Positions 3,022-12,788 of a stretch of DNA of 64,000 nucleotides are shown one piece after another. A program made the translations under genes and the position numbers. The stretch's first letter is position 1. Each line of letters starts with the position of its first letter. The notes under the pieces are model-generated. The model worked only from the letters and a program-made list of their open reading frames with translations, was not told where the DNA came from and made no database searches. Origin of the DNA: a virus; IMG/VR virus record IMGVR_UViG_3300021376_000010; one strand, given 5' to 3'.

Positions 3022-3915
3022 TCAAACCTCTGCTTCGATTTCTTTAGGGTCATTAAATTTTTCAATCCAACCTTCTGGAATCAAATCAGTCATAATGTAA
3101 TCCTTATATGCAGGACCAAACCAAGGAGTTGGTGCAACAACTTTTTTATTTGGGTTATTAATAAGATATGCACCCCACCAAGATAAAGATGAGTTAGCAA
3201 TAATTGCATCACTACAAAGTGTCATCAAACAAAGGTCGATGTATGGAACTGATGCACCATCAGGAAATAGTTCAAGAGAATTATCAGAGAAAAGAAATCT
3301 ATCTCCCTTAAAGAATTCTTGACGTTTGCACCATTCAATAACATCAGAAAACACTAGCACTTGATAACCATTATCAAATTCCTTAAGTGCTTCTTCATAA
3401 TATTCAAATTTACAAAGAGGATGGTATTGTTGAAGCATTTGATATGACCAACGTTCACCTCTGATTCCCTGAAGATTTGGATTTCCTCTTCGGACATGCA
3501 AAAATACAAGTTTTTTATTTCCAATACTTTCAATATATTCTTTACAGGGATCTAACCATTCATCTTTGAACGTAAAATCCTGACGGATTTCATGTTCAAT
3601 ATGCTTGAAATACTTTTCAGATTGAAAATACCCATCCAGATCAATGTTATCGGGGCATTGATTAAAAAGATTTTCATTAAAATGAAATTCTCTCCAGGAA
3701 ATTGTCTGCTTTGGTTGCTCTCCTTGATTTTTTTCCTCGCAGTTAATCAACTTAAAGGCATCAAAAAGACCATAGTTATCACACCTATCAGCATCAGCAG
3801 GAGGAACCATCCATTGATATCCTCTATGTGCAGCAATACCCCTGATAGCAGCATATTGGAACATTTGATTTCCAAGTCTTCCAGCATTGCCAAGTCCATT
3901 AAATGAAATTGCCAT
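3022..3915 (-). CDS. GT11 alpha-1,2-fucosyltransferase-like (paralog of 1358-2215)
   Basis: GRLGNQMFQYA, GYFQSEKYF, HVRRGN, IIANSSLSWWGA. Confidence 0.88.
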   Translation of the reverse strand: MAISFNGLGNAGRLGNQMFQYAAIRGIAAHRGYQWMVPPADADRCDNYGLFDAFKLINCEEKNQGEQPKQTISWREFHFNENLFNQCPDNIDLDGYFQSEKYFKHIEHEIRQDFTFKDEWLDPCKEYIESIGNKKLVFLHVRRGNPNLQGIRGERWSYQMLQQYHPLCKFEYYEEALKEFDNGYQVLVFSDVIEWCKRQEFFKGDRFLFSDNSLELFPDGASVPYIDLCLMTLCSDAIIANSSLSWWGAYLINNPNKKVVAPTPWFGPAYKDYIMTDLIPEGWIEKFNDPKEIEAEV

Positions 3916-6873: not shown

Positions 6874-7563
6874 TTAAACCTCGTCAACAATCCAAACAGT
6901 TTGAACATGTGGAAAACTGTTTCCACATTGATATAATTTAGTCATAGAGATTCCCCACTCGTCTAGAATCTCTTTATGTGCTCTCGATTCTCCATCTTTA
7001 AATTCTTCAAATCCAGGAGTTCCACCCCAATCATCATAACCAATCAAAGTTCCAGGGACAATAAGATTATTCTCCATCAAATAATTAAAAGCAAATTTTG
7101 TTGGAGAGTAAATATCCAAATCAAAATCGACATAAAATGCTGGTTTTAAATCTTTTTGTTTAGGAAGAGTTTCTTCAACAAGTCCAGCAACTACTGAAAC
7201 TGAAGTAGAATTTTCTCTTCCAACAAAAATATTCTGAACTTCCTGTTGAATATGCTTGGCACAATCTTCTGGTGTTTCCAAATTCATGTACTTTAGTACA
7301 TTAAATTCATCTGGAAAAATATCTGGATTCCAAGAATCTTGGAAAATAGGTTCTGCGGTTTCCTTTGGCATTCCAGTGAAAACATCAAATCCATGAAAAC
7401 TATCAACTTCTATTTGATGCTTATTGAGAATAGAAGCAATCTCTTTCATTGATCCTCCATTAAAAACACCGAATTGATAGACAGAATAATTTACCAACTC
7501 ATTTTTGCCGAAAGAATTGCAATCATTAATTGCAATATCTAATAGTGAAGTTCTCCAACTCAT
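6874..7563 (-). CDS. TylF/MycF-like sugar O-methyltransferase
   Basis: QFGVFNGGS, HGFDVFTGMP, GLVEETLP, DFDLDIYSPT, GYDDW. Confidence 0.75.
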   Translation of the reverse strand: MSWRTSLLDIAINDCNSFGKNELVNYSVYQFGVFNGGSMKEIASILNKHQIEVDSFHGFDVFTGMPKETAEPIFQDSWNPDIFPDEFNVLKYMNLETPEDCAKHIQQEVQNIFVGRENSTSVSVVAGLVEETLPKQKDLKPAFYVDFDLDIYSPTKFAFNYLMENNLIVPGTLIGYDDWGGTPGFEEFKDGESRAHKEILDEWGISMTKLYQCGNSFPHVQTVWIVDEV

Positions 7564-8615
7564 GAGTTTTTATTTGCAATTTGAATACTGATCCATTCAT
7601 AAGTCTTACGAATACCATCTTCTAGACTTTGGGAGTAGTCCCACCCAAGTTTTTCACGGATAAGGTCATTGTTTGAATTACGTCCACGAACCCCAAGAGG
7701 AGCATCAAGTTTGTGTTGCTTTTCTACAGTCTTTCCTGATACTTTAGCAGCAGTCTCTACAAGTTGGTTAATAGTAACCATTTCTTCAGATCCAATATTT
7801 ACTGGTCCAATAAAATCAGAATCCATCAATCTTCTAGTTGCTTCGATGCATTCATCAATATAGAGGAAAGATCTTGTTTGCTTTCCGTCTCCCCATACTT
7901 CGATAGTACCTCCCTCAGACGGAAGATAAGCCACTTTTCTACAAATCGCAGCAGGAGCTTTTTCTCTTCCCCCTTCCCATGTACCTTCTGGTCCAAAAAT
8001 GTTATGATATCTAGCAATACGTACAGGGATGCTGTGGTTGCGATTGTAAGCCAAATATAGACGTTCACTAAAAAGTTTTTCCCAACCGTATTCAGAGTCT
8101 GGGTTGGCAGGATAAGCAGAAGACTCCCTACAATCAGGATTATCGGGATCAAGTTGGTTATGCTCAGGATACATGCAAGCAGAACCAGAATAGAAAATTT
8201 TAGTGTTATTTTTGCCGAGTCTTTCATTGAATTTATATTGCTCTTCAAGAACATTCAAATTGATACTAACTGAATTGTGCATGATATCTGCATCATTTTC
8301 TCCAGTGAAAACAAATCCTGCACCACCCATATCAGCAGCAAACTGATAAATTTCATCAAATGCATGAATATAACGATAGGGAACAGAGTTATAGAAATTT
8401 CCTCTATCACCTTTATATTCCAGGACCCTACGAACAAAGTCTACATCTCGTAGATCTCCACGAACAAATTCGTTAGCTTCATGTGCAGAAAACTCTGGAT
8501 ACTTAAGGTCTACACCACGAACCCAGTATCCTTCAGAACGCAACCTTTTAACCATGTGACTTCCAATGAACCCACCAGCACCAAGAACAAGTGCCTTTTT
8601 AATGTATTGACCCAT
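7560..8615 (-). CDS. GDP-mannose 3',5'-epimerase-like NAD-dependent epimerase (WcaG family)
   Basis: GAGGFIG, AADMGGAGF, SACMYPE, YGWEK, GGREKAPAA, GVRGRNSNN. Confidence 0.85.
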   Translation of the reverse strand: MGQYIKKALVLGAGGFIGSHMVKRLRSEGYWVRGVDLKYPEFSAHEANEFVRGDLRDVDFVRRVLEYKGDRGNFYNSVPYRYIHAFDEIYQFAADMGGAGFVFTGENDADIMHNSVSINLNVLEEQYKFNERLGKNNTKIFYSGSACMYPEHNQLDPDNPDCRESSAYPANPDSEYGWEKLFSERLYLAYNRNHSIPVRIARYHNIFGPEGTWEGGREKAPAAICRKVAYLPSEGGTIEVWGDGKQTRSFLYIDECIEATRRLMDSDFIGPVNIGSEEMVTINQLVETAAKVSGKTVEKQHKLDAPLGVRGRNSNNDLIREKLGWDYSQSLEDGIRKTYEWISIQIANKNS

Positions 8616-8650
8616 ACTTTAATCAAGAAAATAATAATTCTTTAGTATAT

Positions 8651-8679
8651 ATCATACTAAAAAAGAAGGAGTTTTGCAA
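8651..8679 (-). promoter_or_regulatory. sigma70-like promoter embedded in a terminator
   Basis: TTGCAA-N17-TATGAT. Confidence 0.45.
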
Positions 8680-8686
8680 CCCTTCT
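8659..8686 (-). terminator. intrinsic terminator
   Basis: GAAGG-GTT-GCAA-AAC-T-CCTTC followed by T6. Confidence 0.65.
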
Positions 8687-8689
8687 CCA

Positions 8690-8755
8690 AAATATTGATT
8701 TATTTTTTTAACTGGAAATATTAACCAGGCGGGAGTTATCCCATCCGCACCATTA
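8690..8755 (-). ncRNA. wcaG RNA motif (probably degenerate at its 3' end)
   Basis: TGGTGCGGATGGGATAACTCCCGCCTGG..TTCCAGTT resembles cyanophage wcaG RNA as recalled; lies directly upstream of a WcaG-family epimerase. Confidence 0.7.
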
Positions 8756-8792
8756 ACAATTTTGTCTTTCCGAGACAAAATTGTTAATGGTG
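8748..8792. repeat. perfect 20-bp inverted repeat with 5-nt loop
   Basis: CACCATTAACAATTTTGTCT-ttccg-AGACAAAATTGTTAATGGTG. Confidence 0.95.
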
Positions 8793-8965
8793 TCTGCTCT
8801 TTCAAGCACTTCATCCAAAGTAGGAAACTCTGGATAATCCATCTTAACTGTATTCTTAATATCCTCATTCCAACAACGAGCAGTATCATATTCAATACTG
8901 AATTTATCCTGTAGCATATTATAAGATTGCTTAAAAATTTCAAATCTTAATTCATAAGGTGTCAT
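8753..8965 (-). CDS. hypothetical protein, 70 aa (MTPYELRFEIFKQ...)
   Basis: AGGAG SD before ATG 8965; resembles a conserved T4-like small protein (YPEFPT..EV..A..IN.FV). Confidence 0.75.
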   Translation of the reverse strand: MTPYELRFEIFKQSYNMLQDKFSIEYDTARCWNEDIKNTVKMDYPEFPTLDEVLERADTINNFVSERQNC

Positions 8966-9022
8966 TGTTTTTCTCCTGTGTTTGTGTGTGTAATCAGTCG
9001 TTCGATTTCTCGGCTCCACCAC

Positions 9023-9256
9023 CTAGTTTGTACTAACTAGGAAAAGTTGGGTTAGTTTTGTAAATTCTATGATTCCATAGAAAGTACAAAGAAGTAAAAC
9101 ATCCCAGAGTTTTAACTTAATTGCAAAGGGAATTGTAAAAATACCCCCAATGCATTTTATCAGTAAACCATATTTAAAGTCTCCCCACAATAACACAAAG
9201 TATCCAATAATTAACAAAAAATTTCCGATGTATCTGAGAAGACTTATTTGAGACAT
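9023..9256 (-). CDS. small multi-pass membrane protein, 77 aa
   Basis: ORF track; about 3 hydrophobic segments. Confidence 0.65.
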   Translation of the reverse strand: MSQISLLRYIGNFLLIIGYFVLLWGDFKYGLLIKCIGGIFTIPFAIKLKLWDVLLLCTFYGIIEFTKLTQLFLVSTN

Positions 9257-9261
9257 GGTTT

Positions 9262-9310
9262 ACATTTCAAGGGAACTCCGACCAGTGCTGTTTAAGTCCA
9301 TCCGTGACTA
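9262..9310 (-). ncRNA. 5' part of a manA-like RNA motif
   Basis: AGTCACGGATGGACTTAAACAGCACTGGTCGGA resembles the start of cyanophage manA RNA as recalled; stem AGTC/GACT. Confidence 0.55.
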
Positions 9311-9314
9311 TTAT

Positions 9315-9488
9315 TCAACATGCATCATTATGTTCTGTATGTATACGAATTAAGTCATCGTTACATGGTGTCACAACAACTGACTTTCCTTTTTCGTTTT
9401 CTACAATAAAACATTCTCCAGTTTCAACCTTTTGAATAAAATTATCAAAATTCTTTTGGAATTCTTCTATCTTAATTTTTTTCATCAT
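9315..9488 (-). CDS. Phd/YefM-antitoxin-fold-like small protein, 57 aa (not in ORF track)
   Basis: manual translation MMKKIKIEEFQKNFDNFIQKVETGECFIVENEKGKSVVVTPCNDDLIRIHTEHNDAC. Confidence 0.6.
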   Translation of the reverse strand: MMKKIKIEEFQKNFDNFIQKVETGECFIVENEKGKSVVVTPCNDDLIRIHTEHNDAC

Positions 9489-9603
9489 ATAGTTGGTCTT
9501 TGTGTATTATCATTATACCCATAATAGGAGCAATTGTCAATCCAGCACCACAAAGACCTAACCAAACTGGACTTGCTGCTAAGACTTCTATGAGATGGAA
9601 CAT
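9472..9603 (-). CDS. single-TM microprotein, 43 aa (not in ORF track)
   Basis: MFHLIEVLAASPVWLGLCGAGLTIAPIMGIMIIHKDQLYDEKN; TAATG coupling to the upstream gene. Confidence 0.6.
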   Translation of the reverse strand: MFHLIEVLAASPVWLGLCGAGLTIAPIMGIMIIHKDQLYDEKN

Positions 9604-9800
9604 TAGTATCCCCTCCAAGTTTTAAATTCGTAGTAAAAGTATTGGTCTACAAGGAAATTGTCTAACGGGGCATTTTCTTCTCGATGTGCCCACTCAAGGC
9701 AAAAATCTTTAATTTTATAATCGTTTAATGAACTGTGACCCCACATTCTAACAAAAGCAGAGGCAGCAAATTGATACCTCTCCTTAGTGTGCGGTGCCAT
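9603..9800 (-). CDS. hypothetical cyanophage protein (start reassigned to ATG 9800)
   Basis: MAPHTKERYQFAASAFVRMW...YFYYEFKTWRGY; the track's upstream extension overlaps ndhP. Confidence 0.65.
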   Translation of the reverse strand: MAPHTKERYQFAASAFVRMWGHSSLNDYKIKDFCLEWAHREENAPLDNFLVDQYFYYEFKTWRGY

Positions 9801-12717: not shown

Positions 12718-12788
12718 ATCGGACAACGAGGATCGAACTCGTGATTTCAACTTGGAAGGATGACGTGTTACCTCTACACTATGTCCGC
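12718..12788 (-). tRNA. tRNA-Gly(TCC), no encoded CCA, G1:A72 mismatch
   Basis: GCGGACA-TA-GTGT/ACAC D arm; TCATC-CTTCCAA-GTTGA; ACGAG-TTCGATC-CTCGT; 3' TGTCCGA-T. Confidence 0.85.

Follow-up and report, generated by a model that had tools for sequence, protein, structure and literature searches.

A divergent, gene-interrupted wcaG RNA in a T4-like cyanophage and its probable place in an ordered chain of UGGY-tailed modules

The wcaG RNA motif (Rfam RF01761) has a divergent relative in IMG/VR virus record IMGVR_UViG_3300021376_000010, where it closes a short series of RNA structures interrupted by small genes. The stretch of DNA analyzed is 64 kb long and is referred to here as the window; all coordinates are positions of the window, the locus lies on its minus strand, and the sequence of 9700-8300 was examined with its open reading frames (ORFs) listed. 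The phage is a T4-like cyanomyovirus without a close isolate, and its best DNA matches are Synechococcus phages that are 66-82% identical in conserved genes. The locus is flanked by a block of small ORFs on one side and a nucleotide-sugar epimerase gene on the other, and its minus-strand elements follow in the order M1, ORF77, M2, ORF70, M3 (a 20-bp hairpin plus the wcaG core), M4 in decayed form, and a terminator. Apart from M4, this layout had been proposed in an initial annotation made from the letters alone, and reading of the sequence together with the ORF list found every element in its place. The stop codons of ORF77 (9025-9023) and ORF70 (8755-8753) each lie inside the 3′ arm of a hairpin, as had also been described.

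The first two modules differ in build. M1, a C-type module at 9270-9310 (minus strand), has a 4-bp AGUC/GACU stem (9309-9295) with the loop ACGGAUG, followed by the linker UAAACAGCAC and the tail UGGUCGGAG at 9284-9276. M2, a B-type module at 9002-9050 (minus strand), consists of UUUU, a 7-bp CCUAGUU/AACUAGG hairpin (9041-9022), the tail UGGUGGAGCC (9021-9012), and a small second hairpin. The 5′ arm of the M2 hairpin occupies 9041-9035, and its 3′ arm, AACUAGG at 9028-9022, has the UAG of ORF77 inside it. The head of M3 is a perfect 20-bp hairpin at 8748-8792 (minus strand; 8792-8773 paired with 8767-8748), with a folding energy of -27.3 kcal/mol and a z-score of -9.1 against shuffles. Its 3′ arm carries the UAA stop of ORF70, and the final five bases of that arm are the UGGUG of UGGUGCGGAUGGG, paired with an upstream CACCA.

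At gathering thresholds, the Rfam models returned a tRNA as the sole match in the window. The gathering score of RF01761 is 42 bits, and relaxed thresholds were needed to recover a wcaG RNA, matched end to end at 8678-8781 (minus strand) with 36.5 bits and an E-value of 9e-5 in a 1.6-kb search or 0.0036 window-wide. The initial annotation had seen features of both the manA and wcaG motifs at the locus. The wcaG part holds, with a score below the Rfam threshold; the manA part is not supported, since the manA model found nothing in 18 related loci, nothing in 8200-9800 at E-values as high as 10, and nothing across the whole window at E-values as high as 5. The manA RNA (RF01745) is also found in T4-like cyanophages, and its copy in S-CREM1, ~370 nt downstream of wcaG, was recovered at 96.6 bits as a positive control. 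The wcaG motif was rated a riboswitch candidate by Weinberg et al. 2010 (PMC2864571), and no function for it has been reported since 2010 within the literature searched.

Conservation of the core argues that the sub-threshold match is a genuine wcaG relative. The core, UGGUGCGGAUGGG-P2 loop-CCCGCCUGG, is intact in the window, and its columns are invariant in an alignment with six canonical or near-canonical copies, as is the CUGG/CCAG stem. Copies at the syntenic site in relatives score 57-104 bits and have a core identical to that of the window; the closest relatives (L004, L005, L024, and L028) reach 57-69 bits at the same site, and canonical copies 92-104 bits. Like these syntenic canonical copies, the element in the window lies before a WcaG-like epimerase gene in a T4-like cyanophage. 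It differs from them in its score, in a P1 that has become an ORF70-derived 20-bp hairpin, and in a last unit that is AU-only and ends in UGGAG. The low score is explained by the missing canonical P1 and the decay of M4.

The divergence of M3 can be followed in some detail. Canonical P1 is a ~7-bp hairpin that follows GUUUC and lies directly 5′ of UGGUG. In the window the hairpin likewise abuts the tail, but it spans 20 bp, contains the UGGUG itself, and lacks both GUUUC and a pseudoknot stem. ORF70 codons (...ACC AUU AAC AAU UUU GUC U) recur as an exact reverse complement in the 3′ arm of this hairpin; this arm stands where L024 and others have a stop-GUUUC-P1 segment, and gives ORF70 a new C-terminus (RQNC) plus its stop codon. 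The canonical head of M3 would thus have been swapped for the 3′ end of ORF70 copied in inverted orientation, producing the perfect hairpin, which was not found in any relative examined and is unique to the window. Since the duplication ends where CACCA and UGGUG meet, the tail of M3 is paired in the window. The apex of the hairpin, GUCUCGGAAAGAC, is itself a C-type hairpin. In variants L043, L048, and L135, a C-type hairpin within the 3′ end of ORF70 is fused to the same wcaG core, and a hairpin directly 5′ of the tail therefore seems to be required. In M4, the second wcaG unit, the CUGG/CCAG stem and a 6-bp AU-only stem are kept, and the tail UUGGAG, with UGGAG replacing UGGCGAGCC, merges into the terminator. 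The whole clade formed by the window, L004, L005, L024, and L028 is without the UGGCGAGCC tail, and the wcaG feature of a P3 unit followed by GUGGCGAGCC is absent from the window.

Canonical wcaG units are H-type pseudoknots. In the alignment, 96% of cells pair, 13 pairs show two-sided changes, both pseudoknot stems included, and these two stems are 94-100% paired. An alternative first-unit head with a different pseudoknot occurs in L007, L010, L019, L023, L107, L131, and L153; an example is GUCC-UC-GUCGG-AUU-GGAC-AUUAAAUAUG-CCGAC ahead of UGGUG, and both of its stems covary among loci (GUCGG/CCGAC versus ACAGG/CCUGU).

The short motif that ties the modules together is nonspecific by itself. 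TGGTG-type sequences have 18 minus-strand matches in the window, mostly Gly codons, so the significance of the modules depends on comparative evidence. Such evidence is available, as the hairpin-plus-tail elements show conservation, strand specificity, and covariation among relatives. The M2 hairpin is 93% paired over 13 relatives, four of its seven pairs show compensatory changes, and its covariation score was reached by none of 500 shuffles. A hairpin followed by UGGUGGAG stands after relatives of ORF77 at 15 of 16 loci, and also in the isolates S-SRM01, S-CAM7, and ACG-2014f. The stem of M1 covaries as well, with one pair occurring as UA in 12 cases, AU in 7, and CG in 1. The thermodynamics of M1 are unremarkable on their own (z = +0.6), so that its support is comparative and does not come from folding energy. 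No Rfam family matches M1 or M2, in the window or at related loci. A second pseudoknot stem was sought in C-type modules; none is convincing for the ACGGAUG subtype, and the UCGGRAU subtype allows just 2-3 G-C pairs.

A covariance model, R1, was built from M1-like C-type modules, with M1 itself (50.8 bits) as a training member. Over the first 100 loci, all 51 of its matches fell on the sense strand, and in 80 stretches gathered independently by the wcaG core alone, all 88 matches were on the wcaG strand and upstream of wcaG. The presence of G-U pairs in the stems and the sense-strand placement of 139/139 matches indicate that the modules are RNA-level elements. Over the 64-kb window, R1 recovered M1 and a partial match to the apex of M3 (8760-8777, 13.2 bits, E = 0.02), with nothing significant elsewhere. 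Five complete phage genomes yielded one or two matches each at E < 0.01, all just upstream of wcaG, and three extra matches elsewhere in the same genomes had E-values of 0.04-0.1, near chance.

Four distinct tail types, UGGUCG, UGGUGGA, UGGUGCGGA, and UGGCG, occur once each, the fourth appearing in full as UGGCGAGCC or UGGCGUGCA. Among 65 chains, 32 have the tail order 1-2-3-4 and 12 the order 2-1-3-4, i.e., the order is near-fixed. The modules are not dispersed repeats, as each genome has one chain. Heads are interchangeable before the same tail and can be a plain hairpin, a C-type hairpin, or a pseudoknot. In the proposed architecture, each module would consist of a hairpin or H-type pseudoknot, a UGGY(G/C) tail directly after it, and then a second small hairpin. 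The suggestion that the three hairpin-plus-UGGY elements and the wcaG RNA belong to one family is borne out, and together they form a chain. By comparison, the Rfam wcaG model spans the final two of the four modules only, and is without the pseudoknots, M1, and M2.

Spacing within the chain is flexible. Compact, ORF-free chains exist in DSL-LC03 and S-CREM1, and coding sequence of 240-1000 nt is tolerated between modules elsewhere. The spacing between C-type module and wcaG core forms classes of 35-45, 80-94, and 242-363 nt, with a few larger values. In the long class, the gaps hold members of no fewer than seven unrelated ORF families: ORF77 at 17 loci, ORF70 at 6, a coiled-coil ORF at 6, and four or more others. 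These three distance classes and the variety of families agree with the expectation that small ORFs come and go between modules in relatives. Gap ORFs end 25-68 nt ahead of the core, abutting the next module on its 5′ side. Gain or loss had been predicted exactly at hairpin-UGGYG junctions; the boundaries instead lie in linkers, downstream of one module's second hairpin and where the following module begins. For example, L005 is without ORF70, and when it is compared with L004 and the window, the insertion maps to a linker, between ...ACUGAUU and GUUUC. The modules would be pictured as folding independently, with the linkers as sites where insertions are tolerated. Modules split apart by whole genes still function, or are at least maintained, which means that the RNA is not a single compact aptamer.

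ORF77 and ORF70 look like ordinary genes, passengers at the only chain positions that tolerate insertion. The simplest reason for their stop codons falling inside modules is that the genes are packed tightly against AU-rich structures in which stops occur. Read-through or frameshift signals were considered and rejected, since the stop codons lie inside the structures and not 5-9 nt upstream of them. In the coiled-coil family, the product is ~68 aa long, Ala/Lys-rich, and coiled-coil-looking (…LEAKAHS…LEAKVDDL…), and the stop codon abuts the first pseudoknot stem. Members lie between the C-type module and wcaG in L002 (2186-2392), L111, L114, L120, L146, L172, and L174.

Signals on either side suggest how the chain may be transcribed. 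A putative sigma-70 promoter with a 12/12 consensus match (TTGACA-17 nt-TATAAT) lies upstream at 9512-9540 (minus strand), and a predicted early transcript carrying the chain probably starts there. This promoter sits within the coding sequence of a 48-aa ORF (9472-9618; residues LTIAPIMGIM), an arrangement also kept in L016, L028, and S-SRM01. Behind the chain lies a predicted composite of terminator and promoter (8651-8688, minus strand), in which a hairpin plus U run (8688-8657, z = -2.6) holds the -35 sequence TTGCAA in its loop, followed after 17 nt by the -10 sequence TATGAT (8656-8651). The -35 in the loop is TTGCAT or TTGACA elsewhere. With a strict pattern, 15 of 26 distinct loci have this composite behind wcaG, and inspection by eye adds further cases; a U run is present there in 24 of the 26. 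The first promoter would start the chain transcript, and the composite would end it. As the sugar genes appear to have their own promoter after wcaG, the chain would fall at the 3′ terminus of the early unit upstream, so that wcaG would belong to the end of an early transcript and not to the primary 5′ untranslated region (UTR) of a sugar gene. The chain of S-CREM1 is followed by tRNA genes, not sugar genes.

On balance, we consider it fairly probable that the locus is the single extended wcaG RNA of this phage, an ordered chain of four autonomous modules that provides docking sites. The modules would work as RNA, as separate docking sites at which a trans-acting partner reads the UGGYS tail exposed between two helices. 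Their place of action would be a 3′ or intercistronic region of an early transcript, and they would not serve as a 5′-UTR riboswitch for the sugar genes. Autonomous, ordered, strand-specific modules with exposed tails, in a single 3′-terminal chain, fit docking sites better than one small-molecule aptamer, and we infer a trans-acting role on this basis. Several points weigh against this picture. In the window itself, the 20-bp hairpin sequesters the UGGUG of M3 and the usual tail of M4 is missing, so this particular copy may be non-functional, partly or wholly. The promoter, the terminator, and the 3′-UTR position are predictions from sequence, and an intrinsic terminator right behind wcaG would suit a riboswitch or attenuator as well. 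Complementarity to phage tRNAs is suggestive for M1 and M2 only; M3 and M4 match over 6 nt, which is at chance level (P = 0.64).

The 3′ NCCA ends of tRNAs would nonetheless be the most concrete candidate partner. In T-box RNAs, the discriminator UGGN pairs with the NCCA end of a tRNA. The modules resemble T-boxes in presenting single-stranded UGGY, complementary to ACCA or GCCA, between helices, and in having an intrinsic terminator downstream of the last module. They differ in being without a specifier loop, stem I, or T-box sequence, and no antiterminator/terminator alternative was found by eye. When tail complementarity was compared with 267 phage tRNA ends, the M1 tail matched tRNA-Pro over 9-10 nt and the M2 tail matched tRNA-Ala over 8-9 nt, the latter match taking in the G3-U70 signature (null P about 0.04-0.12). 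In such a scheme, UGGUCGG would pair with tRNA-Pro, UGGUGGAG with tRNA-Ala, and UGGUGCGGA and UGGCGAGCC with two further partners, with the M3 tail in the window masked by its internal CACCA mimic. That the modules are T-box-like docks for particular tRNA NCCA ends, and the early transcript a four-channel reader or sponge near a tRNA island, we nevertheless hold to be quite unlikely. Two other kinds of binding were considered and dropped. The GGA in the loop of M1 (ACGGAUG) resembles CsrA/RsmE sites, and CsrA-type binding was set aside as unsupported, no CsrA gene being present in five complete chain-bearing phages. Anti-Shine-Dalgarno pairing of UGGUGGAG with the 3′ end of 16S rRNA was rejected by sequence reasoning, since the complement does not match CACCUCC.

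Other readings of the locus share parts of this evidence. In a riboswitch or attenuator, wcaG, perhaps aided by the upstream modules, would sense a ligand or factor and set read-through at 8688-8657 into the sugar genes. The intrinsic terminator present in 24 of the 26 loci, the frequent presence of sugar-nucleotide genes downstream, and the candidate rating by Weinberg et al. (PMC2864571) all speak for this possibility. However, a predicted sigma-70 promoter in and after the same terminator implies that the downstream genes start on their own, the next genes in S-CREM1 are tRNAs, and the modules stay separated by 240-1000 nt of coding sequence. Likewise, canonical P1 and the UGGCGAGCC tail are lost in the window, and no conserved antiterminator pairing was seen by eye, no systematic search having been made. 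A riboswitch thus seems possible but unlikely. That the modules lie at the 3′ ends of ORFs and enclose stop codons would also suit RNA punctuation, i.e., processing or stability signals comparable to repetitive extragenic palindromic (REP) hairpins or tRNA-like structures that set the ends of individual small mRNAs when a polycistronic early transcript is cut. Real tRNAs flank ORF70 at the equivalent positions in other phages (13 contexts), and the perfect 20-bp duplex of the window suffices in length for a double-strand-specific RNase. A single chain per genome is not what would be expected of a general punctuation device, generic stabilizers have no need of four distinct, ordered tails, and ORF-free compact chains are common, which together make this reading rather unlikely.

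A comparable degree of doubt attaches to the proposal that the locus is a decaying remnant, in which an inverted duplication destroyed the first wcaG unit and masks UGGUG, the clade lost the UGGCGAGCC tail, and the chain may no longer work here. The score of 36.5 bits, below the 57-69 of the closest relatives and the 92-104 of canonical copies, is in keeping with decay, as are the missing tail in the window and in L004, L005, L024, and L028, and the confinement of the perfect palindrome to the window. Set against this are the invariant UGGUGCGGAUGGG...CCCGCCUGG core and CUGG/CCAG stem, the intact M1 and M2, and the retention of a hairpin directly 5′ of the tail, as in all other variants. A DNA-level explanation, in which the hairpin-UGGYG elements are attC- or PeSL-type recombination sites that capture or exchange small genes, appears very improbable. 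Integron attC cassettes are small promoterless ORFs, each followed by a folded imperfect palindrome, and the small ORFs at this locus are each followed by a folded element as well. Here, by contrast, the sites are non-equivalent, the array is ordered, unique, and RNA-strand-specific, and the ORF boundaries lie off any crossover point. At least seven unrelated ORF families end at module edges, as cassettes might. The strict strand specificity and G-U pairs indicate RNA, though, and the ORF70 presence/absence breakpoints (after ...ACUGAUU, just before GUUUC) are in linkers, not at the hairpin-tail junction. Moreover, ORF70 moves without modules, and no recombinase was seen, no recombinase search of the window having been made. 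An attC-like gene-capturing repeat system, as first imagined for this locus, is not borne out by four distinct tails that occur once each, in near-fixed order, in one chain per genome. Promoter-early stem-loops (PeSLs) are cassettes of T4-type phages with a composite terminator/promoter design, and such short regulatory repeats do recombine (Arbiol et al. 2010, PMC2839356; Comeau et al. 2014, PMC4122927). The terminator hairpin fused to a predicted sigma-70 promoter behind the chain, in a variable region rich in small ORFs of unassigned function, is PeSL-like, and the resemblance is confined to this end of the chain. Whereas PeSLs are many near-identical recombining DNA repeats, the UGGY modules are four unlike RNA structures found once per genome.

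These comparisons change how the motif may be viewed. What had been observed at the locus is confirmed, and its interpretation is partly supported. The elements form a divergent, gene-interrupted member of the wcaG family arranged as a four-module chain. The catalogued 98-nt wcaG motif would then be just the final two units of this ordered chain. A chain placed before a promoter-bearing terminator would put wcaG at the 3′ end of an early transcript rather than in a sugar-gene 5′ UTR, and would shift the focus from ligand screening to a macromolecular partner of the exposed UGGY tails. For annotators, the implication is that sub-threshold or split wcaG copies can be real relatives.

The genes of the locus are small, apart from the epimerase. 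ORF57 (9315-9488, minus strand), the predicted first cistron of the unit, belongs to a Phd-like antitoxin family (phrog_375, E = 2.9e-11; weak PF02604). No recognizable toxin gene adjoins this 57-aa ORF, and at the syntenic site of DSL-LC03 a gene is annotated as ‘prevent host death’. ORF77 (9023-9256, minus strand), between M1 and M2, encodes a small predicted membrane protein (phrog_2318, E = 9e-23) with tblastn matches in 247 phage records; look-alike clusters in the Atlas carry DUF6552. Its relatives are flanked by modules at 15 of 16 loci.

ORF70 (8753-8965, minus strand), between M2 and M3, is a conserved phage gene without an assigned function that has more than 200 relatives in viral contigs. 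Its proposed tie to the modules finds no support, as 43 of 58 distinct contexts have no module on either side. In 12 contexts the gene lies between an upstream module and wcaG, in 13 it is flanked by tRNAs, and the remainder include cases with a promoter before it and a terminator behind it. In L031-L069 and others, ORF70 lies in a tRNA array in the order tRNA, short GAACC-loop-GGUUC hairpin, CA-rich leader, ORF70, and a further tRNA ~10 nt after the stop codon; the tRNAs and hairpin occupy the spots that are taken by modules in the window. The CA-rich leader (8966-8995, minus strand), ACACACAAACACAGGAG before the ATG, is kept in 75 of 80 relatives, L020-L099 included, and persists whether a tRNA, a promoter, or a module lies upstream. 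Judged from its sequence, it looks like a portable translation leader that moves together with ORF70.

Downstream of the chain, the first gene of a sugar-modification block (7560-8615, minus strand) encodes a WcaG-like NAD-dependent nucleotide-sugar epimerase/dehydratase (PF01370, E = 1.5e-35), whose relatives are annotated as epimerases. Two alike coding stretches (…IIANSS-L/F-SWWGAW…) at about 1420-1490 and 3120-3190 of the window (minus strand), ~1.7 kb apart, suggest two paralogous genes within this block. The sole tRNA gene of the window, at 12718-12788 (minus strand), has the anticodon UCC (Gly), an apparent G1-A72 mismatch atop the acceptor stem, and a U discriminator.

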